A program made the translations under genes and the position numbers. Below the pieces are notes generated by a model that saw only the letters and a list, made by a program, of their open reading frames with translations, searched no databases and had not been told where the DNA came from. From Bacteroidales bacterium (GTDB lineage: Bacteria > Bacteroidota > Bacteroidia > Bacteroidales > WCHB1-69): DNA of 64,000 nt. The stretch covers positions 8,606 to 72,605 of the forward strand of contig JBLJBB010000048.1 of the NCBI GenBank assembly GCA_047638115.1. The letters run 5' to 3'. Shown here piece after piece: positions 30,515-53,160 of this stretch (its first letter is position 1; each line of letters starts with the position of its first letter).

Positions 30515-30588
30515 GGCTCCGTAGTTCAGCTGAATAGAACGTCAGATTCCGGTTCTGAAGGTCGTGGGTTTGAATCCCGCCGGAGTCA
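30515..30588 (+). tRNA. tRNA-Arg (anticodon CCG)
   Basis: Hand-folded cloverleaf. Acceptor GGCTCCG/CGGAGTC, D stem GTTC/GAAC, anticodon stem TCAGA/TCTGA with loop TTCCGGT, T stem GTGGG/CCCGC with loop TTTGAAT. 74 nt. Confidence 0.9.
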
Positions 30589-39379: not shown

Positions 39380-40705
39380 ATGACGTCTGAAAGAATTGCG
39401 CAAATTATACAACTTGTTAAGAACGAAGTGAAACCAGCTCTCGGGTGTACCGAACCGATTGCAGTGGCTCTAGCTGTAGCAAAATCTTGTGAAATCATGA
39501 GAGAAAACGGCCACAATCCTGAGTTTCTTGAGGTGGAAGTGAGTGCCAATATTTTGAAAAATGGGATGGGAGTGGGGATCCCTGGTACCGGTATGGTTGG
39601 GCTCGATATTGCAGCCGCTTTGGCCATGGTGTGTGGTAAAACTGAGTATAACCTCGAAGTACTGAGAGAGATCAATCACGAGGCAATTGTTAAAGCACAA
39701 GAGATTGTCTCCTCGGGCAAAGTTTCCATCGCAATGGCTCAGACTACAAAGAAACTGTATATAAATGCGATTGCAAAAAATCAAAACCACACAGCTTCAA
39801 CCATCATCCAGGATCAACACGATAAAATTACCTATTTCGATTTTGATGGATCCATTTTGTTTAATGATTGCTCGGGAAGCGTAGAGAAAAATCACTGTAA
39901 ACTTCACGAAAAAGAGGAGTCGAATGCCATTCTGGATCTCAAATTGGATGTTCAAACCATCTGGGATTTTGTACATGAAGTGGAGTATAAAGAGATAGAT
40001 TTTATTTTAGAATCTGTGGAGCTTAACAAAGCACTCGCCAAAGAGGGAATTAAACATGAGTATGGGTTACAAGTTGGAAAAACCATCCATACAAATATCC
40101 ATAAACATATTTTAGGGTTTGGGTTGCTCACCAATTCTATGGCCATGACTGCTGCGGCATCGGATGCCAGAATGGCGGGAAGTATTTTGCCTGCGATGAG
40201 TAATACCGGAAGTGGAAATCAGGGAATTACGGCAACTTTACCAGTGGTAGCTGCCTCGGAAACCTTTTTAAGCTCTCAAGAAGAGTTAGCCAGAGCGTTG
40301 ATGTTGAGCCATTTGGTTACAATTCATATCAAAGGGCAACTGGGCAGATTGTCGGCATTGTGTGGCGCTGTTGTTGCTTCCATTGGATCTGCTTGCGGTA
40401 TTGTGTATCTGGCAGAAGGGAACTACGAACAGGTGTGTTATGCCATTAAAAATATGATCGGAAACATGACGGGGATGGTGTGCGATGGGGCAAAAATTGG
40501 TTGTGCCCTTAAAGTGGCCTCAGGGGTATCTTCTGCAGTTCAATCTGTTTTGTTAGCTATGGACAATATATGCATCTCCGAAAATGATGGGATTATTGAT
40601 CGCGATATTGAAAAAACCATTAAAAACCTTGCCAAGATTGGCTCCACCGGGATGCAGGAAACAGATGATATGATTCTGAAAATTATGGTATCGAAGTTGA
40701 ATTAA
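39380..40705 (+). CDS. UPF0597 / YhaM-like protein (serine-dehydratase-alpha-like; putative L-cysteine desulfidase)
   Basis: 441 aa. VKPALGCTEPIAVALA near the N-terminus, SNTGSGNQGIT, CDGAKIGCALK. Size and motifs match the YhaM/CdsB-type family as I recall it. Confidence 0.7.
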   Translation: MTSERIAQIIQLVKNEVKPALGCTEPIAVALAVAKSCEIMRENGHNPEFLEVEVSANILKNGMGVGIPGTGMVGLDIAAALAMVCGKTEYNLEVLREINHEAIVKAQEIVSSGKVSIAMAQTTKKLYINAIAKNQNHTASTIIQDQHDKITYFDFDGSILFNDCSGSVEKNHCKLHEKEESNAILDLKLDVQTIWDFVHEVEYKEIDFILESVELNKALAKEGIKHEYGLQVGKTIHTNIHKHILGFGLLTNSMAMTAAASDARMAGSILPAMSNTGSGNQGITATLPVVAASETFLSSQEELARALMLSHLVTIHIKGQLGRLSALCGAVVASIGSACGIVYLAEGNYEQVCYAIKNMIGNMTGMVCDGAKIGCALKVASGVSSAVQSVLLAMDNICISENDGIIDRDIEKTIKNLAKIGSTGMQETDDMILKIMVSKLN

Positions 40706-40737: not shown

Positions 40738-40788
40738 ATGTAAATATTTGAATAATAGCCAAATAGAAACACTATTCAATTTATTTTT

Positions 40789-40816
40789 CATTATTCACTA
40801 TTCATTATTCATTATT
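40789..40816. repeat. Heptamer tandem array CA(T/C)TATT x4, abutting R5
   Basis: cattatt cactatt cattatt cattatt. The reverse-complement array lies at 53126-53160. Confidence 0.85.
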
Positions 40817-40817
40817 T

Positions 40818-41047: not shown

Positions 41048-41252
41048 GAATAAAAAGAGAATAACAAACAATAAATCTTGATCACAAAATGAAATTTTTA
41101 TAGAATATTTTTTGTAATAAGATTAAAAATATTCCATTTTTAAATACTGATTTTTACAAGGTAAATAAAAAATATTAAAGACTTTTATTATTTTGTAGCC
41201 CATATACTTAAAAATAATTTCAAAAAAACTTGACAATTTGAATTTTTTGTTG

Positions 41253-41260
41253 TACTTTTG
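41253..41260 (+). promoter_or_regulatory. -7 box upstream of the Type I R-M operon
   Basis: tacttttg, 5 nt upstream of the ATG at 41265 (near-leaderless). A ttgaca-like hexamer lies at 41230-41235. Confidence 0.45.
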
Positions 41261-41264
41261 TAGA

Positions 41265-41843
41265 ATGATTACTAAAGAAAATATTTTGAAAACATTAATA
41301 AAGGAAATCACAAACATTCAAACAGGATTATTTGCAAAACCATCCGGTTCGGGTGATTTGGTTTATCTGCAATCCAAACATTTTGACGAATCTGGTCAAC
41401 TGCTTGCTGTTTTACATCCAGACCTTAAATCTATTAATATTTCTGAAAAACACCTATTAAAAGAGGGTGATGTACTTTTTGCTGCTAAAGGGAATAAAAA
41501 TTTTGCTACCGTTTTTGAAAACCATAATGAAGCAGCTGTAGCTTCAACCTCTTTTTTTGTTATTAGAATAACCGACAAAAAAATAGCACCCCATTATTTA
41601 GTATGGCTTCTTAATAGTCACTCTATTCAAAAAGAATTGAAAGGTCAGGCATTAGGAACTTCAATTCTTTCCATATCAAAACAAGTCTTAGAAAATTTAG
41701 AAATTTTAGTTCCAAGTATTGAAACACAAAAAATTATTCTACAAATTACTGAACTTCGAAATAGGGAAAAAACTTTGAAGCAAAAAATTGAAACACTTAG
41801 AGATAACCAAATTCAAAAACAAATTTTTAATATAATAAAATAA
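41265..41843 (+). CDS. hsdS: Half-size (single-TRD) Type I R-M specificity subunit
   Basis: 192 aa. One target-recognition domain, then a conserved helix ...LENLEILVPSIETQKIILQITELRNREKTLKQKIETL. Start trimmed from the tracked TTG at 41238 to the ATG behind the promoter box. Confidence 0.7.
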   Translation: MITKENILKTLIKEITNIQTGLFAKPSGSGDLVYLQSKHFDESGQLLAVLHPDLKSINISEKHLLKEGDVLFAAKGNKNFATVFENHNEAAVASTSFFVIRITDKKIAPHYLVWLLNSHSIQKELKGQALGTSILSISKQVLENLEILVPSIETQKIILQITELRNREKTLKQKIETLRDNQIQKQIFNIIK

Positions 41844-41845
41844 AT

Positions 41846-43408
41846 ATGATGACTAAAATAACTCAGAAAGAGATTAACGATGCTGTTTGGAAAGCGTGCG
41901 ATACCTTTAGAGGAAGTATTGATCCCAGCGTTTACAAAGACTATGTTCTTACTATGCTTTTTATCAAATATCTTAGTGATGTTCATGATGATAAAATGGA
42001 AAGCTACTTAAAAAAATATGATGGTGATATAGAACGTGCTAAAAGAGCCATGCAACACGAAAGATTTCTAGTTCCGAATCAAAGTCATTATAAATTTTTG
42101 TATGAACATCGCAATGAAGCCAACATTGGAGAACTGATCAACATAGCACTTACCGACTTGGAAGAAGCCAATCGTGAAAAACTATATAGTGAAGATGGAG
42201 CAGGAATTTTCCAGAATATAGATTTTAACAGTAGCAAACTGGGTGAACCCAAAGACAAAAACCAACGTTTGAAAACCCTTTTGATCGATTTTAAATCGGA
42301 TAAATTGGACTTACGTCCTTCCCATTTGGATGGAAACGACATCATTGGAGGAGCTTACATGTTCTTGATTGAAAATTTTGCCAGTGATGCAGGAAAAAAA
42401 GCGGGTGAATTTTTTACCCCAAAAGAAGTTTCTACCCTTATTGCCAAGCTTACCAAATCTAAACCAGGTTCACGCATTTGCGATCCAACTTGCGGATCAG
42501 CTTCACTCTTGATTAAAGCCGGTGAAGAGGTAGGTTCAGACAATTTTTCACTCTACGGACAAGAAGCCAACGGAAGTACATGGGCTTTAGCGGTTATGAA
42601 TATGTTTTTGCATGGTTTTGATAATGCAACCATTCGTTGGGGCGATACCATTCGCAATCCAAAATTGAAAGAAGGTGATACTTTAATGAAGTTTGATACC
42701 GTTGTGGCAAATCCACCATTTTCATTAGATAAATGGGGAAAAATTGAAGACAAAGAGGGAGACAAAACAACCATAAGTTATGACCCTGAAACCGATAAAT
42801 ATAATCGTTTTTGGAGAGGTGTTCCACCCAAAAGCAAAGGGGACTGGGCATTTATCAGTCACATGATTGAAACACTGAATGAGCAAGGAAAAGCGGGTGT
42901 AGTAGTACCACACGGTGTATTGTTTCGTGGCAGTAGTGAAGGACGGATTCGTCAACGTACCATTGAAGATAATTTACTTGAAGCTGTGATTGGGCTTCCT
43001 TCTAATCTATTTTTTGGTACAGGTATTCCCGCTGCCATTATGATCTTTAACAAACTAAAAAGCAGTAATAACGTATTATTTATAGATGCCAGTAAACAAT
43101 ATGAAAGTGCTAAAAACCAAAACAGACTCCGCGAGGGTGACATTGAACATATTGTAAACACCTATCGTGATTTTTCATTAGGTAATTTACAAGTAGGGGT
43201 AGCGGAAGAAAAATTCAGTTATGTGGCAACTTTCGAGGAGATACAAGAAAACGATTTTAATTTGAACATTCCCCGTTATGTGGACACCTTTGAAGAGGAA
43301 GCCGAAGTGGACATTGCTGCGGTGCAACAAGAGATTGAAAAGCTTGAAGAGGAATTGGTACATGTTCAGAATGAAATTGAAGTTTATTTAAAGCAATTAA
43401 TAAAATAG
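41846..43408 (+). CDS. hsdM: Type I R-M N6-adenine DNA methyltransferase
   Basis: HsdM_N-like start, FFTPKEV, DPTCGSASLL (motif I), VVANPPFS (motif IV). Confidence 0.93.
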   Translation: MMTKITQKEINDAVWKACDTFRGSIDPSVYKDYVLTMLFIKYLSDVHDDKMESYLKKYDGDIERAKRAMQHERFLVPNQSHYKFLYEHRNEANIGELINIALTDLEEANREKLYSEDGAGIFQNIDFNSSKLGEPKDKNQRLKTLLIDFKSDKLDLRPSHLDGNDIIGGAYMFLIENFASDAGKKAGEFFTPKEVSTLIAKLTKSKPGSRICDPTCGSASLLIKAGEEVGSDNFSLYGQEANGSTWALAVMNMFLHGFDNATIRWGDTIRNPKLKEGDTLMKFDTVVANPPFSLDKWGKIEDKEGDKTTISYDPETDKYNRFWRGVPPKSKGDWAFISHMIETLNEQGKAGVVVPHGVLFRGSSEGRIRQRTIEDNLLEAVIGLPSNLFFGTGIPAAIMIFNKLKSSNNVLFIDASKQYESAKNQNRLREGDIEHIVNTYRDFSLGNLQVGVAEEKFSYVATFEEIQENDFNLNIPRYVDTFEEEAEVDIAAVQQEIEKLEEELVHVQNEIEVYLKQLIK

Positions 43409-43410
43409 AA

Positions 43411-43863
43411 ATGAAAAACGAACTATCAAATCTACACAAAACTTTGTTTGAGCAGATCAAACAAGTTGATAAAGAAGGTAATGAATGGTGGTCAGCAAGA
43501 CAACTTGGTAAAGTACTGGAATACTCAGAATATCGTCATTTTAAACCAGTAATTGATAAAGCCAAGGAAGCCTGTGTAAATAGCTCTCAAGAAGTATCAG
43601 ACCATTTCGAGGAGTTCCTCGAAATGGTTGACATTGGATCTGGCGCTCAACGTCCTATGGGAGATGGTGTAAAACTTTCTCGTTATGCTTGTTACCTGAT
43701 TGTTCAAAATGCTGATCCAAGTAAAGAGGTTGTTGCACAAGGACAAACCATTGAAGAGATTGGGGGTACGATGCCTGAAGATCTCCCTGTTGCCGAAAGT
43801 ATCAAAAAGCTGGAAAAAGCAAAAGAGCCGAAGATGTTAAATACACCCAAAAAGAAAAAATAA
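43411..43863 (+). CDS. DinD-like (DNA-damage-inducible protein D family) protein, short form
   Basis: GNEWWSARQLGKVLEYSEYRHFKPVIDKAKEAC...LSRYACYLIVQNADPSK matches the DinD N-terminal half. It jumps directly to a TMPEDLPVAESIKKLEK-type C-terminus. Confidence 0.65.
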   Translation: MKNELSNLHKTLFEQIKQVDKEGNEWWSARQLGKVLEYSEYRHFKPVIDKAKEACVNSSQEVSDHFEEFLEMVDIGSGAQRPMGDGVKLSRYACYLIVQNADPSKEVVAQGQTIEEIGGTMPEDLPVAESIKKLEKAKEPKMLNTPKKKK

Positions 43864-44969
43864 TGACTGAAACAAAAAACATGACAATACCATCTGATTG
43901 GGAAATTTTACATTTAGGAGAAATTTTTAAACTTACTTCAGGAAAGACAAAACCCAGTGAGTTATTTGATGAACATGTTGATGAATATATTTATCCTGTT
44001 TATGGTGGAAATGGAATAATTGGGTTTGCTAAAGAATTTAATTCAGAAGGTGAAAATATTTTAATTGGAAGGGTTGGTGAGTATTGCGGGATTACTCGAT
44101 TTTTAAATGAAAAGTGTTGGATTACAGATAATGCATTATACTCAAAAGATTTTTTAATTGACATTGATGCAAAGTTCTTAGTATACAAATTACAATTAGA
44201 CGATTTGTCAAAACTTAGGAACAAAGGAGGCCAACCACTAATTAGTCAAGGACCAATTAGTCTTAACAAAGTTTGTATACCAAGATCACTTCCTGAGCAA
44301 AAAGCGATAGCTCGGGTTCTCAGCACTTGGGATGAAGCGATCCACAAAACCGAACAACTCATTGCCCAAAAAGAACTCCGCAAAAAATGGCTGATGCAAA
44401 ATCTTCTAACCGGGAAAATGAGATTGAAGGGGTTTGATGGGGAGTGGGAAGATATTGAATTAGGTGAACTGTTGAATTATGAGCAACCTACAAAATACTT
44501 AGTTAAGGATACTCTTTACAGCAATTTGTATTCTATTCCTGTTTTAACAGCGGGTAAGACATTTATTTTAGGTTATACTAATGAAGAAAATGATATTTGT
44601 GATGATTTGCCTGTTGTGATTTTTGACGATTTTACTACTGCCTCAAAATATGTTGATTTTCCGTTTAAGGCAAAATCCTCGGCGATGAAGCTTCTAAGAC
44701 CTAAGCAAAACGTTAATTTAAAGTTTGTTTTTGAAGCTATGAAATTAATAAATTATGTTGTTGGTAACCATGAAAGACATTGGATTTCAAAATTTGTTTA
44801 CCTAACAATTCCTTGTCCTTTCATTGATGAACAAACCGCTATTGCTGAAGTATTACAAGCTGCAGATAAAGAGATAAGCTTGCTCAAAGCCAAAGTGGAG
44901 AAATTAAAGGAACAGAAAAAGGGGTTGATGCAGGTGTTGTTGACAGGGAAAAAACGATTAAAAGCATAA
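43863..44969 (+). CDS. hsdS: Full-length (two-TRD) Type I R-M specificity subunit
   Basis: Two variable domains separated by the conserved helices LPEQKAIARVLSTWDEAIHKTEQLIAQKELRKKWLMQNLLTGKMRL and DEQTAIAEVLQAADKEISLLKAKVEKLKEQKKGLMQVLLTGKKRL. Confidence 0.9.
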   Translation: MTETKNMTIPSDWEILHLGEIFKLTSGKTKPSELFDEHVDEYIYPVYGGNGIIGFAKEFNSEGENILIGRVGEYCGITRFLNEKCWITDNALYSKDFLIDIDAKFLVYKLQLDDLSKLRNKGGQPLISQGPISLNKVCIPRSLPEQKAIARVLSTWDEAIHKTEQLIAQKELRKKWLMQNLLTGKMRLKGFDGEWEDIELGELLNYEQPTKYLVKDTLYSNLYSIPVLTAGKTFILGYTNEENDICDDLPVVIFDDFTTASKYVDFPFKAKSSAMKLLRPKQNVNLKFVFEAMKLINYVVGNHERHWISKFVYLTIPCPFIDEQTAIAEVLQAADKEISLLKAKVEKLKEQKKGLMQVLLTGKKRLKA

Positions 44970-44981
44970 TAAAAATTACAC

Positions 44982-46283
44982 ATGAATACAGCAGAAATAT
45001 TTAAAGATTTTCTTACTAATATAAAAATTAGTGATGATAAAGCTGAAGAAATTTCGTATCGATATGGTCGAATTACAAAAGCATTAAACAAAGAGTTTCG
45101 TGATACTGATTCAAAAACATCCAATAGTTTACAAGTAGGATCTTATGGTAGATATACTGGAATAAATGGAATTTCAGACTTGGATATGCTTTATATAATG
45201 CCTGCCTCCAAATGGGATAACTATAACAAAACAGGCGGACAATTAAAACTACTCCAAGATACTAAAACAGCAATTTCAAACACTTATTCTTCATCTGATA
45301 TAAAAGTTGACAGATGCGTAGTTACAGTTAAATTTTCAGATTCTCATATCGATATACAACCTGTATTTGAAATAGAAGACCAAGATTATAAATATCCTGA
45401 CACTTATAGAGATGGATCTTGGAAAATTACCAAGCCAAGAAAAGAAATGGACGCGATGGTAGAATTTTCTGACAATAAGAACAAAAATCTTAGGCGGCTA
45501 TGTAAGATGGCAAGAGCATGGAAAAATAAGCATGGAGTTTGTATGAATGGACTTTTAATTGATACACTAGCATACAATTTTCTAAAGGCAACTACATATT
45601 TTGACGAAAAAACTTTTTCTTTTTATGATGAAATGTGTAAAGATTTTTTTAAATATTTATATGAACTGCCTAAAGACCAAACAGAATTTGGAGCATTAGG
45701 GAGTAAACAAAGAGTAAAAGTTAAGAAATCTTTTAATCGAAAAGCAAAAAAAGCCTATGATTTATCTTTAGATGCGTTTGATGCCACAACGGATAAACTA
45801 AAACACAACAAATGGAGAGATGTTTTTGGAAAGGATTTTCCAAAATTTGAAAGCGAAGAGAATGAAGCAAGGGAAATAAATGAAAGTTATCATAATACGG
45901 AAGAATTTATTGAATCAAAATACCCAATAGATATTCGTTATGATTTAAAAATAGATTGTGATATAAAACAAAGTGGGTTTAGAGAAGGATCATTGAGAGA
46001 GTATTTGTTTAAAAAAATTAAATTGATGCCAAATAAATCACTAAGATTTTTCATTGAAAGAATTGATGTACCACCTCCTTATGAGGTGAAGTGGAAAGTA
46101 ACTAATAGAGGTGAACAAGCAATTAAAAGAGATTGTATAAGAGGGCAGATTATTGACGACCATGGTTCTCAAGAAAGAAAAGAAAATACAAATTTTAAAG
46201 GAAGTCATTTTGTAGAGTGTTACATAATAAAAAATAATTTTGTAGTAGCAAGAGATTTGATTGATGTTCCAATTTCAGAATAA
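44982..46283 (+). CDS. SMODS-type pol-beta nucleotidyltransferase with a ~200-aa beta-rich C-terminal extension
   Basis: VGSYGRYTGINGISDLDMLYIMP (G-S, 11 residues, D-x-D). Third acidic strand SHIDIQPVF. C-terminal ...YEVKWKVTNRGEQAIKRDCIRGQIID... Confidence 0.7.
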   Translation: MNTAEIFKDFLTNIKISDDKAEEISYRYGRITKALNKEFRDTDSKTSNSLQVGSYGRYTGINGISDLDMLYIMPASKWDNYNKTGGQLKLLQDTKTAISNTYSSSDIKVDRCVVTVKFSDSHIDIQPVFEIEDQDYKYPDTYRDGSWKITKPRKEMDAMVEFSDNKNKNLRRLCKMARAWKNKHGVCMNGLLIDTLAYNFLKATTYFDEKTFSFYDEMCKDFFKYLYELPKDQTEFGALGSKQRVKVKKSFNRKAKKAYDLSLDAFDATTDKLKHNKWRDVFGKDFPKFESEENEAREINESYHNTEEFIESKYPIDIRYDLKIDCDIKQSGFREGSLREYLFKKIKLMPNKSLRFFIERIDVPPPYEVKWKVTNRGEQAIKRDCIRGQIIDDHGSQERKENTNFKGSHFVECYIIKNNFVVARDLIDVPISE

Positions 46284-46298
46284 TTTAAAAACATAAAT

Positions 46299-46856
46299 AT
46301 GAACGAGCAAAAAAAAATACTTGAATCTCAAATAAGAGAAATATACGGAAGGGTGGTTTACACTCATAAAACACATGAAAAATGTGCTGATGTTCTTAAG
46401 AAAAGAAGTGATTATTTGAAGTTTGGTGAAATATTTCTGTCAGCCGTAACGACCACGAGTATTCTAGTAGTTCTTTTTGGAGATGGACAAATATTTCAGT
46501 TTTTAGCCGCATTATTTTCAACAATACTACTCGCATTAACACTCTATACTAAAGATTTCAACTTGTTGGGAATTGCTGAAAAACATAAACAAGCAGCATT
46601 AAATATTCTTGAAATAAGAGAAAAGCTTCTATCTTTACTTGTGGATATCAAGATTGGAAATAAAGAAATCGAAACACTTCAGCATAAAAGAGATGAACTA
46701 AACGAGCAACTTATAAATACTTACAGAGGTGCCCCAAAAACAATTAATAAAGCTTACCAAATTGCATCTATAGCATTAAAAGAAAATGAAGAATTTACTT
46801 TCTCTGACGAAGAAATTGATAAATTTTTACCGGATAGTTTAAAGAAAAATATTTAG
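46299..46856 (+). CDS. SLATT-like two-TM effector protein
   Basis: 185 aa. A helix, then adjacent TM helices FGEIFLSAVTTTSILVVLFG and IFQFLAALFSTILLALTLYT, then an amphipathic helical tail. Lies 15 nt after the NTase gene. Confidence 0.65.
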   Translation: MNEQKKILESQIREIYGRVVYTHKTHEKCADVLKKRSDYLKFGEIFLSAVTTTSILVVLFGDGQIFQFLAALFSTILLALTLYTKDFNLLGIAEKHKQAALNILEIREKLLSLLVDIKIGNKEIETLQHKRDELNEQLINTYRGAPKTINKAYQIASIALKENEEFTFSDEEIDKFLPDSLKKNI

Positions 46857-46867
46857 AATTTAAAATT

Positions 46868-48601
46868 ATGACCATATCAGAATTAAAACAGCTTAAAGAA
46901 AGCGAAGATAAAGTTGAGTTTAAAGCCGCCACACATAACTTTTCTTATGCAGGAAGCGACCACAGAGACCAGGAAGAAAGACGCAAGTGTTTTTTAGGGT
47001 ATGTGGTTGCATTCTCGAATGAGGGTGGTGGAAGGCTTATCTTAGGGATGTCAGACAATGAACCACATGATGTAGTGGGGAGTGATTTCGCACAGGGAAA
47101 AGTTGGAGCATTAGAAGATGAAACGTACAGCCGATTGGGCATCAGGGTGCGAATGGAAGAACACTCTGAAAATGAATTGCGGGTTTTAATTGCTCACATT
47201 CCCCCACGACCTGTTGGCAAGATGATGAAATTTGAAGGAGTGCCATTAATGAGAGTGGGTGAAAGTTTACGCAACATGAGCGATGAAGAGATGTTTGCCA
47301 TTCTTTCAGAACAAGAACCCGACTTTTCAGCCAAATTTTGCAAAGGCATCAACATAGCAGATTTAGATGATGCTGCAATTAAAAAAATGAAAGAGAGTTA
47401 TGCCCGCAAGCAAAAGAATCCGGGCTTCCTGCAGCTCAGCACTGAACAAGTTTTAACTGATTTAAAATTGCTCGAAAAGGGTAAACTTACCTATGCTGCA
47501 CTGGTTTTATTGGCAAAAAAAGAGGTTATTCACAATAAATTACCACAATGCAAAACCATTTGGGAGTTACGCAATAGCGAAGCACAAATACACTACGATA
47601 GCCGTGAGGTAATTGATGAACCTTTGTTTATAGCCATAGAAAGCATTTGGAAATTGATAAACCAACCTACACTCAACAAAAAACATCCAGTACAATCGGG
47701 AGCTTATATTTTCGATTTGTATGATTTTAACGAAGAAGTAATTCGCGAAGCTGTTCTCAATGCCATTGCCCATCGGGATTACACTATCACCAGCGAAACG
47801 GTTATAAAACAATATCCCAACAAAATTATCATTACCAACCCGGGAGGTTTCCCTAAAGGCGTAAATATTGAAAATATTCTTACGGTGAGTAGTACACCCA
47901 GAAGCCGTTTAATGACCGAAATTTTGGAAAAAACCGGCTTGGTAGAACGCAGTGGACAAGGAGTAGATAAAATTTTTTCTATCACTTTAACTGAAGGAAA
48001 GGCAGAACCCGACTATAAAAATTCAGACATGTTTCAGGTTTCGATTATGCTCCGAACAGAAATTATTGACAAGGCATTTCACGTATTTATAAGCCAATAT
48101 CAAAACAGCGATAAAGAACCTAAATTGGGCGTTGAGCAAATCATTACTCTATACAAAATCCACAACGGCATATTTCAAAACTTAAAATCAGAAATCGTAA
48201 GTCAGCTAGAAAAATCAGGGTTAATTGATAAAATTTCAGGACACACCACCCGATATACCTTGTCGCAAGAATACCATGCATTGGTAAATGATGATTTAAA
48301 GATTGGGAAAAGATATTTGGTAAAAGAGATAGAACTCATTCTTATGGCATTGCAAGGAAATGCTTTAAAAATGGGTAATCTAGAGGAAAATCTTAAATCT
48401 TCATTGAATCGAAATCAGATAAAGTACCTTACAGGAAAGTTATTTGAAGATGAGGTATTGAGCAAAGACGGCATAGGAAGTGGAACTTCCTATGCTATCC
48501 ATAAATCATTTTCTTCTCTTAGGGGCGAAGTTCTAATTCAAAATGTGATTTCATTTTTAAACAGTAAGTATGGGTCGGGCAATTCTCCAAAAGCAACTTA
48601 A
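46868..48601 (+). CDS. AlbA_2 (Schlafen-like) + HATPase_c_4 + wHTH protein (RecG-C-terminal-like putative regulator)
   Basis: ESEDKVEFKAA...GGGRLILGMSD (AlbA_2). REAVLNAIAHRDY, ITNPGGFP, ERSGQGVDKI (HATPase_c_4-type). Confidence 0.75.
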   Translation: MTISELKQLKESEDKVEFKAATHNFSYAGSDHRDQEERRKCFLGYVVAFSNEGGGRLILGMSDNEPHDVVGSDFAQGKVGALEDETYSRLGIRVRMEEHSENELRVLIAHIPPRPVGKMMKFEGVPLMRVGESLRNMSDEEMFAILSEQEPDFSAKFCKGINIADLDDAAIKKMKESYARKQKNPGFLQLSTEQVLTDLKLLEKGKLTYAALVLLAKKEVIHNKLPQCKTIWELRNSEAQIHYDSREVIDEPLFIAIESIWKLINQPTLNKKHPVQSGAYIFDLYDFNEEVIREAVLNAIAHRDYTITSETVIKQYPNKIIITNPGGFPKGVNIENILTVSSTPRSRLMTEILEKTGLVERSGQGVDKIFSITLTEGKAEPDYKNSDMFQVSIMLRTEIIDKAFHVFISQYQNSDKEPKLGVEQIITLYKIHNGIFQNLKSEIVSQLEKSGLIDKISGHTTRYTLSQEYHALVNDDLKIGKRYLVKEIELILMALQGNALKMGNLEENLKSSLNRNQIKYLTGKLFEDEVLSKDGIGSGTSYAIHKSFSSLRGEVLIQNVISFLNSKYGSGNSPKAT

Positions 48602-48755
48602 AATTCTCCAAAATATGGAAATCGTAAATAATTTAAATTCTCCAAAACAGATATTTATTTCTCCAAAATCATATACTAAATTTGTTTATTATGTTGTATA
48701 ACATTTATTTAAAAATTTATAATAATTCTCCAAAACAGGATTTCTATTCTCCAAA
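48582..48755 (+). promoter_or_regulatory. Six direct ATTCTCCAAA(A/G) repeats arranged as three pairs with 21-bp spacing
   Basis: Copies start at 48582, 48603, 48637, 48658 (TTTCTCC variant), 48724 and 48745. The first lies in the last codons of the upstream gene. Confidence 0.6.
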
Positions 48756-48893: not shown

Positions 48894-48937
48894 ATTTATT
48901 AGAGGATTATTAGAGATTTATTAGAGGATTATTAGAG
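48894..48937 (+). repeat. Perfect 2 x 22-bp tandem (= 4 x TTATTAGAG at exact 11-bp spacing) upstream of hsdR
   Basis: atttattagaggattattagag occurs twice and ends 29 nt before the ATG at 48967. Confidence 0.85.
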
Positions 48938-48966: not shown

Positions 48967-51900
48967 ATGAATATACCAAGCTTTAAAGAAGATCATATCA
49001 GTCAAATTCCGGCTCTGCAAATGCTGGTGAATTTGGGTTATATTTATTTAAGTCCGGATGAAGCGGACAGACAAAGAGGGGGTAAAACAACCAACGTTTT
49101 ACTGGAAGATGTTTTACGAAAGCAGTTAAAGGAGATCAATAGCATCAAAGTGAGTGCTACTAAAACGGGCATTTTTACTGACGAAAATATCGAACGTGGA
49201 ATTTTAGCTTTGAAGAACCTTCCTTTGAATGATGGTTATATTGCAGCCAGCGAAAGAGCGTATAATCTTCTTACTTTAGGGCACTCTTTGGAACAAAGTA
49301 TTGATGGTGACAAAAAAAGTTTTACGCTTCAATATATTGACTGGAAAAACATCAACAACAATGTGTTTCATGTAACAGAAGAATACAGCGTAATGCGTAG
49401 CACAAGCAAAGAGCATTATCGTCCAGATTTGGTGCTATTTATAAATGGAATCCCCTTATGTATTATCGAATGCAAAAGACCGGATATGAAAGACCCATTG
49501 AAACAAGCGATTAGCCAGCATCTTCGGAGTCAACAGGAAGATGGAATTCGTAATTTATATATGTATTCTCAATTCATACTGAGTATTGCATCACAAGAAG
49601 CCTCTTTTGCAACCAATGCAACACCAGAGAAGTTTTGGGCAAAGTGGGAGGAGAAATTTAATAACAAAGAAGAAGAAGAACAATACAAATCAAATTTGAA
49701 TAAACTCAAAAACAAAGCGATTTCTAATGCAGTCAAGGAACAAATTTTTAAAGATCGATTCAGATATGTACGTCAATATTTTGACGCATTAGAGCAAGAG
49801 GATATCCAATTAACAGAACAGGATGTGTATTTATATGGATTGTGCAGACCTGAGAGATTGATAGAAATTGTTTTTAATTTTATTTTGTTCGACAATGGAG
49901 AGAAGAAAATTGCTCGTTACCAACAGTTTTTTGCAGTCAAAAAATCTATACAACGGATCAGAAACATGGAACATGGAAAACGAAAAGGGGGTGTAATCTG
50001 GCATACACAAGGGAGTGGAAAATCTCTAACTATGGTGATGCTCGCACAAGCTATTGCTTTAGAACCAACTATTCGTAATCCCAAAATTGTTTTGGTAACC
50101 GATCGTACCGATTTGGATAATCAGATTACAAGTACATTCCGTAAATGTGGCAAATTTGTTGAGAACGCGACAACAGGGCAGCGCTTGGTTGAATTATTGG
50201 AAAGTAAAAGTGATGCTGTTGTTACTACCATCATCAACAAATTTGTGGCTGCGGTTAAAAAAATAAGTAACCCCTTAGATAGCCCCGATATTTTTGTTTT
50301 AGTTGATGAAGGACACAGAACTCAGCATGGCATTTTTAATATCGATATGCAAAAGACTTTACCCAACGCATGTTTCATTGCCATGACCGGAACACCTCTT
50401 TTTAAAAAAGATAAAAGTACGGCAGAAAAATTTGGTGGATTAATTGATGACTACACCGTGGACAAAGCGGTCACTGACAAAGCGGTTGTCCCATTGCTCT
50501 ATGAAGGAAGGTTAGCATTACAAGATGTGAATGCAAATCCAATTGATACTTTTTTCGGGATGGTTGCTGAACCACTTAATGAATACCAAAAAGCAGACAT
50601 CAAAAAGAAGTTCGCCCGTTATGACCACTTGAACTCAGCGGAGCAGAAAATGCGCATGATTGCTTGGGATATCAGTTATCATTTTCGTGATAACTGGCAA
50701 GATAGTACCCCATTTAAAGGTCAATTGGTTTGCGATAAAAAAGTGAATGCCATCAAATACAAAGAATACTTGGATGAAATTAACATTGTGAGTAGCGAAG
50801 TATTGATATCATCTATTGATGAAAGGGAGGGAGAAGATAGTGCCTATGAAAAATCATCCGAAAAAGTGAATCAATTTTGGAAAAAAATGATGAATGAGCA
50901 TGGGAATGCTAAAAGTTATGAGAAGAATATCATCAATCGTTTTAAAAATCAGAAAGATCCTGAAATCATTATTGTTGTCGATAAACTCCTTACAGGATTT
51001 GACGAACCCAAAAACACTGTTTTATATCTCACCAGAAATTTACAAAATCATAAATTACTGCAAGCCATTGCACGGGTAAACCGAATTTATCCCGATAAAG
51101 AATTTGGGTATATTATTGATTATTATGGAGTTATTGAAAATCTAGATGATGCATTGTTGTTGTATTCCTCTTTTAAAGATTTTGATGACGATGATTTGGA
51201 AGGGACACTTACCAATATTAATGAGGAGATAAAAAAATTACCTCAAAACCATTCAAACCTTTGGGATATTTTTAAAACAATTGCTAACAAACGAGATGTC
51301 GAAGCATATCAACAACTATTGAAAGATGAAGCAATACGAGTTTTATTTTACGATAAATTAGCTGCCTTTGCTAAAAGCCTCAAAATAGCTTTATCTTCTA
51401 TTCAATTCCACAAAGAGGTTGAAGAAAAAACGATCAATCGTTATAAAGAAGATTTGACTATGTTTATGAAACTTCGTATTGCTGTAGCAAAAAGATATAG
51501 TGATACCATTGACTATAAACAATATGAAGGACAAATTCAAAAATTAATAGATACCCATATCACTACTGAGAAAATAGAAACCATCACGGAATTAGTGAAC
51601 ATTTTTGACAAGGATAAGTTTCAACAAGAAGTCGAAAACACAACCGGTAAAGTTGCCAAGGCAGATAAAATTGCCAGCAGAACTTCCAAACACATCAGTG
51701 AAAAGATGGATGAAGATCCGGCATTCTATAAAAAATTCTCACAAATGTTAAAAGAGACTATTGCAGAATATGAAGCTAAAAGAATTAGTGAAGCACTCTA
51801 TCTAAGTAGGGTTCAAGATATCATGAACCATGTTTTAGCTCATACAGACGATGATATTCCGGAGCAATTAAAAAATCGAGATGTAGCAAAAGCTTTTTTC

Positions 51901-52194
51901 GGGTTGACTGTTGAAGCACTTGCAGAAAAAATTCAAGATAATGTTATACGCAAAGAAGTATCAACACAAACAGCTTTGCAAATTGACAATATAATTCAAC
52001 AAACAATATTGGATAATGGCCAGCCTATAGTTGATTGGCAATATAAAACTAACATTACAGGAAAATTGTTTATTGAAATTGGGGACTATCTCATTGACGA
52101 AGTAAGAAATAAATATGATATAAACATCTCTTTTTCCGAAATGGACAAGATTGTTGACGACTGTATTGAAGTAGCAAAAATTCGTTATAAGTAA
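48967..52194 (+). CDS. hsdR: Type I restriction endonuclease, R subunit
   Basis: N-terminal PD-(D/E)xK (RPDLVLFINGIPLCIIECKRP). Helicase motifs HTQGSGKSLTM, VLVDEGHRTQ, MTGTPL. 1075 aa. Confidence 0.93.
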   Translation: MNIPSFKEDHISQIPALQMLVNLGYIYLSPDEADRQRGGKTTNVLLEDVLRKQLKEINSIKVSATKTGIFTDENIERGILALKNLPLNDGYIAASERAYNLLTLGHSLEQSIDGDKKSFTLQYIDWKNINNNVFHVTEEYSVMRSTSKEHYRPDLVLFINGIPLCIIECKRPDMKDPLKQAISQHLRSQQEDGIRNLYMYSQFILSIASQEASFATNATPEKFWAKWEEKFNNKEEEEQYKSNLNKLKNKAISNAVKEQIFKDRFRYVRQYFDALEQEDIQLTEQDVYLYGLCRPERLIEIVFNFILFDNGEKKIARYQQFFAVKKSIQRIRNMEHGKRKGGVIWHTQGSGKSLTMVMLAQAIALEPTIRNPKIVLVTDRTDLDNQITSTFRKCGKFVENATTGQRLVELLESKSDAVVTTIINKFVAAVKKISNPLDSPDIFVLVDEGHRTQHGIFNIDMQKTLPNACFIAMTGTPLFKKDKSTAEKFGGLIDDYTVDKAVTDKAVVPLLYEGRLALQDVNANPIDTFFGMVAEPLNEYQKADIKKKFARYDHLNSAEQKMRMIAWDISYHFRDNWQDSTPFKGQLVCDKKVNAIKYKEYLDEINIVSSEVLISSIDEREGEDSAYEKSSEKVNQFWKKMMNEHGNAKSYEKNIINRFKNQKDPEIIIVVDKLLTGFDEPKNTVLYLTRNLQNHKLLQAIARVNRIYPDKEFGYIIDYYGVIENLDDALLLYSSFKDFDDDDLEGTLTNINEEIKKLPQNHSNLWDIFKTIANKRDVEAYQQLLKDEAIRVLFYDKLAAFAKSLKIALSSIQFHKEVEEKTINRYKEDLTMFMKLRIAVAKRYSDTIDYKQYEGQIQKLIDTHITTEKIETITELVNIFDKDKFQQEVENTTGKVAKADKIASRTSKHISEKMDEDPAFYKKFSQMLKETIAEYEAKRISEALYLSRVQDIMNHVLAHTDDDIPEQLKNRDVAKAFFGLTVEALAEKIQDNVIRKEVSTQTALQIDNIIQQTILDNGQPIVDWQYKTNITGKLFIEIGDYLIDEVRNKYDINISFSEMDKIVDDCIEVAKIRYK

Positions 52195-52889
52195 TGAAAG
52201 ATTCAATTCAATTTGGAAGCAAAACCATTGTTTTTCAGTTAGAATATTCCGACAGAAAATCACTAGGTATTACAATAACACCGGAAATGGATGTACTAGT
52301 AAAAGTTCCTTTCGACTCTTCTATAGAAAAGGTAACAGAGAAAATCAGAAAGAAAGCACCTTGGATCATAAAACAACAAAGTTACTTTCTTTCATTTCAA
52401 CCAAGGACACCCCAACGCAAATATATCAGTGGAGAAACACATTTATATTTAGGAAGACAATATCGGTTGCAGGTTGAAATTGGTCACGAGGAATCGGTAA
52501 AGTTAAAAGGGAAATTCATTATTGTAATAGCAAAAGAAAAATCAAGAGCAAAAGAATTATTGCAAGATTGGTATCTAGAACACGCAAAAGCCAAATTTAA
52601 AGCCATTGCTACACCACTCATAGAAAAATTCAAAAAGTACAAAATCGAACCAACTTCAATTGTACTTCGAGATATGCCGACACGATGGGGTAGTTGTACG
52701 CCTTTAGGAAAAATTATGTTAAATCCCGAATTGATTAAAGCCCCAAAAGGGTGTATTGAATATGTTATCATTCACGAACTGTGCCATTTAATTCACCATT
52801 CCCACTCACAGAAATTTTTTGATTTACAAACAAAAGAAATGAAAGACTGGGAAAAGTGGAAAATAAAGTTGGAAAAATTATTAGCTTAA
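52194..52889 (+). CDS. DUF45/YgjP-like (M48-type, SprT-like) zinc metallopeptidase
   Basis: RWGSCTPLGKIMLNPELI...YVIIHELCHLIHHSHSQKFF. TAATG overlap with hsdR. Confidence 0.8.
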   Translation: MKDSIQFGSKTIVFQLEYSDRKSLGITITPEMDVLVKVPFDSSIEKVTEKIRKKAPWIIKQQSYFLSFQPRTPQRKYISGETHLYLGRQYRLQVEIGHEESVKLKGKFIIVIAKEKSRAKELLQDWYLEHAKAKFKAIATPLIEKFKKYKIEPTSIVLRDMPTRWGSCTPLGKIMLNPELIKAPKGCIEYVIIHELCHLIHHSHSQKFFDLQTKEMKDWEKWKIKLEKLLA

Positions 52890-53122: not shown

Positions 53123-53125
53123 AAA

Positions 53126-53160
53126 AATAGTGAATAACTAATAGTGAATAATGAATAATA
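53126..53160. repeat. Heptamer tandem array AATA(G/A)(T/C)(G/T/A) x5 (reverse complement of the CAYTATT array)
   Basis: aatagtg aataact aatagtg aataatg aataata, directly outside R4. Confidence 0.8.

Follow-up and report, generated by a model that had tools for sequence, protein, structure and literature searches.

Around 40% of the Type I operons of CBASS, an antiphage signaling system based on cyclic oligonucleotides, encode a cGAS/DncV-like nucleotidyltransferase (CD-NTase) fused to an AGS-C domain. Clades B and H have this fusion almost universally and clades F and G in part, operons of the EcCdnF04-SLATT6 type protect Escherichia coli, and the presence of AGS-C correlates with the phage families restricted (bioRxiv 10.1101/2023.05.21.541620). 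The membrane effector classes listed for CBASS include both SLATT4 and SLATT6 (PMC12480259), and a lactococcal plasmid pair, made of a PF18186 SLATT protein (190 aa) and a nucleotidyltransferase (NTase)/AGS-C protein (408 aa), is listed with the plasmid-encoded antiphage systems identified in PMC11381338. As for genomic location, the hsdS-hsdR junction of Type I restriction-modification (R-M) operons was proposed to be a recombination hotspot for defense genes, with DarTG2 as an example (PMC12255303), TgvAB and PrrC being two more defense genes that lie within Type I R-M loci (PMC11411939, PMC12707154), and a survey of genes embedded in such systems found 96.7% of them in the orientation of their host system (bioRxiv 10.1101/2024.01.29.577857). 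Here, we analyze a two-gene cassette found in a stretch of 64,000 nucleotides of a Bacteroidales bacterium (contig JBLJBB010000048.1, positions 8,606 to 72,605), the whole of which is hereafter called the window. The cassette, which encodes a putative cyclase and a SLATT_4 protein, is very probably an anti-phage Type I CBASS that a Type I R-M operon carries in its hsdS-hsdR slot as exchangeable cargo.

The identification of the first gene as that of a CBASS cyclase arises from profile searches. The Pfam SMODS family matches residues 1-161 of the protein (2.5e-48, 164.8 bits for a cut-off of 26.5), AGS_C (PF18134) matches its C-terminus over profile positions 2-129 of 129 (1e-51), and the PADLOC CBASS cyclase model PDLC00796 spans it in full (1-432 of 432, 4e-193). 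In the translation, G53-S54 is followed, after 11 residues, by D66-L-D68, and a strand reading SHIDIQPVF from residue 121 brings D124 as third acid, in agreement with the motif and acidic strand that had been described from the letters alone. In an alignment of 27 homologues, G53-S54, D66, D68, H122, and D124 are all invariant. Besides, the PDB sequence search pairs the GS...DxD motif with that of Pseudomonas aeruginosa CdnD (PaCdnD), and D124 with the V-D-A strand of the latter. The PDB sequence and profile searches with the cyclase returned bacterial CD-NTases only, the best being PaCdnD (6p8u, 2.4e-12), and the nearest solved structures, those of CdnD and CdnC, are both weak matches. The original prediction had described a "~200-aa beta-rich extension" at the C-terminus: the C-terminal AGS-C is indeed there, but it measures ~130 aa (residues 305-432) and is preceded by a region which corresponds to the helical C-lobe of the NTase according to Pfam and to the AlphaFold2 (AF2) model.

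The second gene starts 15 nt downstream of the first, on the same + strand, and its product is covered in full by the Pfam family SLATT_4 (PF18186; 1-165 of 165, 1e-67). It is also matched by the NCBIfam SLATT_4 model (NF033632; 141.9 bits for a cut-off of 55) and by the PADLOC CBASS Effector 2TM model PDLC00696 (3.6e-76), so that the SMODS, AGS-C, and SLATT domain calls made beforehand are all borne out by profile searches in Pfam, PADLOC, and NCBIfam. The coordinates of the two open reading frames (ORFs), their lengths, and the spacer between them had been given exactly. Kyte-Doolittle windows of at least 1.6 occur in the SLATT_4 protein at two transmembrane (TM) helices only, with a maximum of 2.03, and its AF2 model, of moderate confidence with a mean predicted local distance difference test (pLDDT) score of 70.7, is all-helical, with helices at residues 53-60 and 64-86 and with long helices, taken as cytoplasmic, flanking the TM hairpin on both sides. 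The hydropathy peaks and the helical tail of the model therefore agree with the two adjacent TM helices and tail that had been predicted. Since the N-terminal 41 residues carry a net charge of +4, the topology of the protein would be N-in. PDB sequence, profile, and fold searches with the SLATT_4 protein gave nothing significant, Foldseek returning generic helical hairpins only (E of at least 0.065).

The flanking genes were scanned with Pfam and PADLOC, which gave hsdS, AlbA_2/HATPase_c_4, hsdM, Bro-N, hsdR, and YgjP only; Cap2/3, HORMA/TRIP13, and type IV accessory genes are not among them. As the pair has no accessory gene next to it, whether Cap2/3, HORMA/TRIP13, or another, it is assigned to Type I CBASS. 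By its profile matches, the pair is an ordinary CBASS, whose architecture is already catalogued in PADLOC, Pfam, and NCBI models, and the R-M slot in which it lies is a known hotspot. The question raised by the original prediction, namely whether the pair was an orthologue of a known system, a CBASS variant, or something new, thus resolves in favor of an ordinary Type I CBASS (PDLC00796, 4e-193; PDLC00696, 3.6e-76), and the same cyclase and 2TM effector matches support the proposal of a candidate nucleotide-signaling abortive-infection cassette. In this context, it could be asked whether the locus is an inactive remnant, or whether its enzyme is a non-defense NTase, such as an antitoxin of the minimal nucleotidyltransferase (MNT) type or an aminoglycoside nucleotidyltransferase (ANT), lying beside a small membrane protein. 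However, the family models are matched by both ORFs from end to end, no variation is seen at the catalytic residues, conservation of the pair over many genera amounts to 70-91%, and no MNT or ANT family is found among the Pfam results, all of which leaves such an explanation with next to no probability.

The E. coli CdnF04/F05-SLATT6 operons and the lactococcal pair pUCCL631_167/168 are described parallels of the window pair. They share with it the two-gene operon, the SMODS core with its GS...DxD...D motif, the AGS-C domain, and the small SLATT effector, as well as the lack of Cap2/3 or HORMA genes. The lactococcal effector also belongs to PF18186, but the order listed there is effector first. 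In contrast with these parallels, the window pair sits within an R-M operon, its best plasmid relatives are 46-59% identical, and its host is apparently a bacterium of the Bacteroidota with a low G+C content. As regards the location of the pair, PrrC in EcoPrrI, DarTG2 in the RRDM island of enteropathogenic E. coli (EPEC), and TgvAB in the Vibrio VPI-2 island share with it the hsdS-hsdR slot, the orientation of the R-M genes, and the short gaps, and in these loci as in the window operon the slot behaves as a hotspot with alternative cargo. Their cargo, however, is an anticodon nuclease, a toxin-antitoxin system, and a Type IV restriction enzyme, respectively, whereas that of the window is a CBASS, and nothing indicates for the window pair a functional coupling of the kind that links PrrC to its R-M enzyme. 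Finally, ThsH of the Type VII Thoeris system and the DRT10 partners are also SLATT membrane effectors, controlled by a ligand which a partner enzyme produces and which derives from nucleotides, but the signal is made by a TIR domain (cyclic ADP-ribose, cADPR) in Type VII Thoeris and by a reverse transcriptase in DRT10, compared to a CD-NTase here.

The cyclase family is large, with 4,845 proteins at an E-value of 1e-5 or below, the top 120 of which are 74-85% identical to the window protein and distributed over many Bacteroidota genera, and the relatives of the effector follow the same pattern. A cyclase-based census was made in a genome collection, in which the close relatives comprise 19 loci with 69-85% cyclase identity (individual loci from the comparisons are designated below by L numbers). 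The cyclase lies in the hsdS-hsdR slot of the same operon type in 18 of these 19, and the cyclase-effector pairing is kept in 18 of the 19. The R-M-embedded relatives include Mariniradius, Ferruginibacter, Chryseobacterium, Pedobacter, Flavobacterium, Kaistella, Algoriphagus, and a Chlorobium metagenome-assembled genome (MAG). The one locus outside the slot is that of Flavobacterium hibisci, where the pair stands alone, adjoining a threonine-biosynthesis operon and a transporter. Further away, the relatives of 46-59% identity are full-length proteins encoded on plasmids of Proteobacteria, the Sulfitobacter and Klebsiella plasmids carrying the pair without nearby R-M genes, and the distant relatives (29-45% identity), some of them in candidate-phyla bacteria with a SLATT_4 neighbor, also occur without R-M genes. 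The conjugative plasmid pAV1812-2 of the gammaproteobacterium Aeromonas veronii (L116, 4277-13695) displays the order hsdM-hsdS-NTase-SLATT-hsdR-SprT with overlapping stop and start codons; its cyclase is 57% identical to that of the window, and a WYL-domain gene lies ahead of the operon.

Other loci differ within the module itself. In L010 (11314-11919), a 74%-identical cyclase is partnered by a SLATT_6 effector, and in L064 (4390-5809), an 80%-identical SLATT_4 protein is partnered by a 292-aa SMODS cyclase that lacks AGS-C. As these two loci indicate, CBASS modules are shuffled internally. In L087 (5444-7536), the slot holds a patatin and a DncV-like CBASS instead. At a guess, the window cyclase might belong to clade F, in view of the published CdnF-AGS-C-SLATT6 operons and of the effector swap of L010.

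That the cassette arrived separately from the R-M genes around it had been proposed on the basis of composition, and it is the comparison of operons that supports it. An hsdM-based census of a metagenome collection provided 80 operons with 79-98% identical HsdM. In 36 of these, the end of hsdS and the start of hsdR are both visible; the distance that separates the two genes ranges in these sister operons from 3 nt to 6.3 kb, and only 4 of the 36 hold the pair. The closest comparison is offered by L035, which occupies the same chromosomal site, with flanks, including mutS, of 75-76% nucleotide identity, and whose R-M operon shows 94.5% nucleotide identity to that of the window (98% for HsdM and 96% for HsdR at the protein level) without containing the pair. 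The blastn homology between the two (94-98%) ends at 44951, 18 nt before the hsdS stop, and restarts at 48565, L035 having 1.1 kb with unrelated small ORFs in place of the intervening segment. Conversely, in L006 and L007 the cyclase and SLATT_4 are 81% and 84% identical to those of the window, yet HsdM is 61% and HsdR 52-53% identical. Since a 94.5%-identical operon at the same site lacks the pair, since it is present in no more than 4 of 36 sister operons, and since the identities of cassette and R-M genes are uncoupled in L006, L007, and L035, the comparison indicates that the cassette arrived independently of the R-M genes. In addition, the island of L035 is 94.5% identical at the nucleotide level whereas the flanking housekeeping genes reach 75-76%, and exchange at this chromosomal site therefore seems to involve the R-M island as a single unit.

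Some data weigh against the assignment of the pair to an autonomous Type I CBASS. First, the evidence for the cyclase drawn from its fold must be regarded as weak, given the poor AF2 model (mean pLDDT 60.8, with an AGS-C region that shows beta strands at low confidence). The Foldseek search with this model gave a top 50 made entirely of CD-NTases (CdnD, CdnC, CdnB, DncV, and CdnE), with E-values down to 4e-10 but TM-scores of 0.26-0.37 only. The alignments given to AF2 contained close homologues only (74-91% identity), which is considered the reason for the poor cyclase model and for the moderate SLATT_4 one. Second, the cyclase falls under the NCBIfam equivalog cut-offs, with 112.7 bits for CBASS_cyclase_b, where 200 are required, and 63 bits for CBASS_cyclase_a. 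These two models cover other sub-clades, so that the low scores do not exclude membership of the wider family, and the cyclase would therefore belong to a sub-clade outside both. Third, the activation of SLATT effectors by CBASS signals is "thought to" occur and has not been demonstrated (bioRxiv 10.64898/2025.12.03.692087). Fourth, the presence of 18 of the 19 close relatives in one R-M slot leaves some room for a functional coupling with R-M.

This last point leads to the possibility that the pair acts as a PrrC-like guardian of the R-M system, in which the AGS-C cyclase would sense the inhibition or altered state of HsdRMS, caused for instance by a phage anti-restriction protein, and would respond by killing the cell through its membrane, as a second line of defense. 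Indeed, the identical hsdS-hsdR position is kept among relatives of 69-85% identity from many Bacteroidota genera and from the Chlorobium MAG, the arrangement recurs with overlapping stop and start codons and a 57%-identical cyclase on the Aeromonas plasmid, PrrC provides the precedent of a protein that is embedded in EcoPrrI and activated on inhibition of the R-M enzyme (PMC12707154), and the sensor role of AGS-C is still unexplained (bioRxiv 10.1101/2023.05.21.541620). Nevertheless, the near-exclusive embedding in Type I R-M operons that would characterize a PrrC-like guardian is not seen, since F. hibisci, candidate-phyla bacteria, and the plasmids of Sulfitobacter and Klebsiella all have the pair without nearby R-M genes. 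AGS-C Type I CBASS operons moreover defend E. coli when cloned alone (bioRxiv 10.1101/2023.05.21.541620), the slot holds many unrelated cargo genes and contains the pair in a small minority of the sister operons, and the identities are uncoupled, the cyclase of L006 being 81% identical for 61% in hsdM and 52% in hsdR, and L035 having a 98%-identical hsdM and no CBASS. We therefore consider it very unlikely that the pair responds to the state of its R-M enzyme. A narrower version, according to which one Bacteroidota lineage of the AGS-C cyclase/SLATT_4 pair has specialized as guardian within a single Type I R-M operon family, reads through AGS-C either the HsdRMS state or the phage anti-restriction factors directed at this complex, and converts restriction failure into membrane suicide as a PrrC-style backup, is given an equally low probability. 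As for the autonomous Type I CBASS that we favor, its location within R-M genes does not imply that it needs the R-M enzyme.

A parallel with Hailong had also been drawn. In that system, the HalB NTase constitutively produces poly-dA, and the inhibitory oligo-dA keeps the channel shut (PMC13434031). Applied to the window pair, this would mean that the NTase constitutively makes a linear oligonucleotide which closes the SLATT channel, until phage nucleases or binding proteins remove it. The layout of an NTase with a small membrane protein does resemble HalB/HalA (PMC13434031), the two systems having in common two genes that encode a nucleotidyltransferase and a small depolarizing membrane effector (in Hailong, the DNA-gated channel HalA). 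The SLATT proteins of DRT10 are regulated by DNA products (PMC13276650), and a direct demonstration of the activation mode of CBASS SLATT proteins is lacking in the literature (bioRxiv 10.64898/2025.12.03.692087). However, Hailong synthesis is a constitutive, tyrosine-primed production of poly-dA, whereas the window enzyme falls within the CD-NTase/SMODS family, matches a CBASS cyclase model over its full length, and retrieves CD-NTases only when the PDB is searched by sequence, profile, and fold; for the 2TM protein, these PDB searches gave no significant match of any sort. No similarity to Hailong was found in these PDB sequence, profile, and Foldseek searches, for which the models were modest and the presence of HalA/HalB in the PDB copies was unconfirmed. 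The parallel is thus not supported, the logic of Hailong being opposite to that of CBASS (PMC13434031), and a negatively gated channel of this kind is very improbable for the window pair.

Regarding base composition, the cassette had been described as having 17-28% G+C, which turned out to be too low: the cyclase gene has 29.7% and the SLATT_4 gene 30.3%, with single 60-nt lines at 18-40% and a median of 30%. Among the neighbors, hsdS (33.7%) and the AlbA_2/HATPase_c_4 gene that follows the cassette (38.0%) are lower than the ~42% and ~45% claimed, while hsdM (37.6%) and hsdR (34.7%) compare with ~38% claimed for both. The 38 long ORFs of the window have a mean G+C of 32.5% with a standard deviation of 3.5, which places the two cassette genes at z = -0.8 and -0.6. 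The cassette is thus no compositional outlier, and its contrast with the immediate neighbors is real but modest. Composition was accordingly rejected as a sign of foreign origin, since the cassette lies within one standard deviation of the mean and the slightly raised values are those of the R-M genes; of the original argument for a separate arrival, the conclusion stands by the comparison with L035 and the sister operons, and the compositional part does not. The highest G+C of the window (42.2%, and 41.9% at third codon positions, compared to the mean of 32.5%) belongs to a gene at 39380-40705, just upstream of the island.

The content of the slot in the sister operons was examined through a Pfam census of the 121 ORFs located between hsdS and hsdR. 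HATPase_c_4, accompanied by AlbA_2, accounts for 13 ORFs, SMODS for 7 (4 of them with AGS_C, the slot also containing 4 SLATT_4 and 3 SLATT_5), DUF3800 and Metallophos for 7 each, Fic for 5, Patatin for 4, and DncV-like NTase, AbiTii, ThsB-TIR, and the Pycsar-type effector PycTM for 2 each, many slot ORFs being without any Pfam family. The AlbA_2/HATPase_c_4 gene is the commonest cargo (13 of 36 loci), with or without CBASS, and usually lies directly upstream of hsdR. In the loci collected through the cyclase, pAgo (prokaryotic Argonaute), TIR-DUF1883, kinase, and PDDEXK nuclease genes are found beside the pair, and the same cargo modules are seen in one or the other of two positions, hsdM-hsdS and hsdS-hsdR. 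As an example of cargo in the R-M slot, a gene for a 761-aa Piwi-domain protein (pAgo) lies together with that of a 299-aa partner in L006 (13037-16209), L007 (6889-10061), and L049 (13625-16797); in L006 and L007 the pAgo gene is directly beside the CBASS pair, and L006 also has a DUF1883-TIR gene. Another cargo module, present in L002 (11877-14506), L005 (7967-10596), and L004 (4713-7322), consists of three genes that encode a Metallophos phosphoesterase and proteins of 340 aa and 259 aa without Pfam match. It recurs in either of the two R-M slots and is a candidate for an uncharacterized defense system.

The features of the window operon are collected in Table 1. That the cassette lies inside a Type I R-M operon, as first proposed, was confirmed by Pfam and PADLOC, with hsdM and hsdS upstream and hsdR downstream.

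Table 1. Position, in window numbering, of the genes, domains, and motifs of the R-M operon and its CBASS cassette.
Feature	Position	Strand	Length	Evidence
HsdS-like gene of half size, with a single target-recognition domain; opens the operon	41238..41843	+	201 aa	Pfam Methylase_S 3.4e-9
hsdM, Type I methyltransferase	41846..43408	+		Pfam N6_Mtase 1.1e-100 and HsdM_N; PADLOC MTase_I 2.2e-129
Bro-N/DinD-like gene, between hsdM and hsdS	43411..43863	+	150 aa	Pfam Bro-N 1.4e-11; NCBIfam DinD 1-112 of 288; PADLOC PDC-S13
hsdS, specificity subunit	43863..44969	+		Pfam Methylase_S 3.9e-25, two stretches; PADLOC Specificity_I 9.1e-68
Variable cargo segment relative to L035 (CD-NTase, SLATT_4, AlbA_2/HATPase_c_4)	44952..48564	+		blastn
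Putative CD-NTase (CBASS oligonucleotide cyclase) with C-terminal AGS-C	44982..46283	+	433 aa	Pfam, PADLOC, PDB profile, Foldseek
Pol-beta fold catalytic motif, G53-S54 ... D66-x-D68	45138..45185	+		Translation, homologue alignment
D124 codon, third catalytic acidic residue (H-I-D-I-Q)	45351..45353	+		Invariant; PaCdnD alignment
AGS-C (Ig-like) domain, residues 305-432	45894..46277	+		Pfam PF18134
Putative SLATT_4 two-transmembrane CBASS effector	46299..46856	+	185 aa	Pfam, PADLOC, NCBIfam
Two TM helices, about residues 43-60 and 64-84, with a short G-D-G-Q turn between	46425..46550	+		Hydropathy, AF2
AlbA_2 (Schlafen) and HATPase_c_4 cargo gene	46868..48601	+	577 aa	Pfam
hsdR, restriction subunit	48967..52194	+		PADLOC REase_I 9e-212
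YgjP/SprT-like metallopeptidase; last gene of the operon	52194..52889	+		Pfam YgjP-like 1.5e-51; trails hsdR in relatives

All nine genes of the operon are on the + strand, with gaps of 11-15 nt around the cassette and the hsdS stop 12 nt before the cyclase start. The half-size HsdS-like gene is found ahead of hsdM in all 18 R-M-embedded relatives, besides the full-length hsdS downstream, and its product may be an alternative specificity subunit. The Bro-N/DinD-like copy is apparently truncated to its N-terminal half, because relatives at the same position measure ~285 aa. The product of the AlbA_2/HATPase_c_4 gene shows partial similarity to the pAgo-associated SIR2-PNTD model of PADLOC. This gene was considered as a third CBASS component and rejected, since it is not beside the pair in L001, L002, L012, L016, and L051 and since it is common in the slot without CBASS.

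Several repeats were observed around these genes. A 36-nt imperfect inverted repeat (40782-40817 and 53125-53160), 89% complementary and extendable to ~42 nt, encloses the 12.3-kb R-M island in full. Each of its arms adjoins a GC-rich stretch, and L035 has the right arm as well, behind its YgjP gene. The 365-nt gap upstream of hsdR is associated with six copies of the motif TTCTCCAAA, arranged as three pairs (48583-48755 and 48894-48937), and contains four tandem repeats of the 11-nt unit ATTTATTAGAG. In the whole window, TTCTCCAAA has 7 copies for 2.2 expected, a number reached in none of 100 shuffles. Its six-copy layout is kept in L035 (14749-14921), and single or paired copies occur just upstream of hsdR in several other loci. 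The TTCTCCAAA and ATTTATTAGAG repeats are possibly operator sites. Scans for sigma-70 type promoters and terminators were uninformative, their counts matching the shuffled expectation, and so was the Bacteroidota-type promoter pattern TTTG...TAnnTTTG (8 matches for 7.3 expected). The only Rfam match of the window is a single tRNA gene (30515-30588, + strand).

By analogy with described CBASS, the pair would work as follows. In the uninfected cell, the cyclase would be inactive. A cue arising from phage infection would switch it on, the Ig-like AGS-C domain probably shaping the cue that is sensed, and the active enzyme would convert nucleoside triphosphates into a cyclic di- or oligonucleotide. 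This signal would bind the cytoplasmic helical parts of the SLATT_4 protein and induce its oligomerization in the inner membrane, and the oligomer would breach or depolarize this membrane, leading to death or arrest of the cell before the release of phage progeny. The position within the R-M operon would provide co-transcription and co-transfer with the R-M genes, co-transcription being likely because the intergenic gaps are short, and the conserved 3' end of hsdS and region upstream of hsdR would probably serve as homology arms for cassette swaps.

As an annotation, the pair adds little, being one more Type I CBASS with an architecture already tested in other hosts. The loci related to it nevertheless form a natural comparison set, made of a near-isogenic R-M operon without the pair, a swap to a SLATT_6 effector, and an AGS-C-less cyclase associated with SLATT_4, which could be used to ask what AGS-C senses and how SLATT effectors read the signal. 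More broadly, this Bacteroidota Type I R-M operon family appears as a compact, co-oriented bay for many defense systems, which illustrates the proposed hsdS-hsdR hotspot and which may be mined for cargo genes that are so far unannotated.

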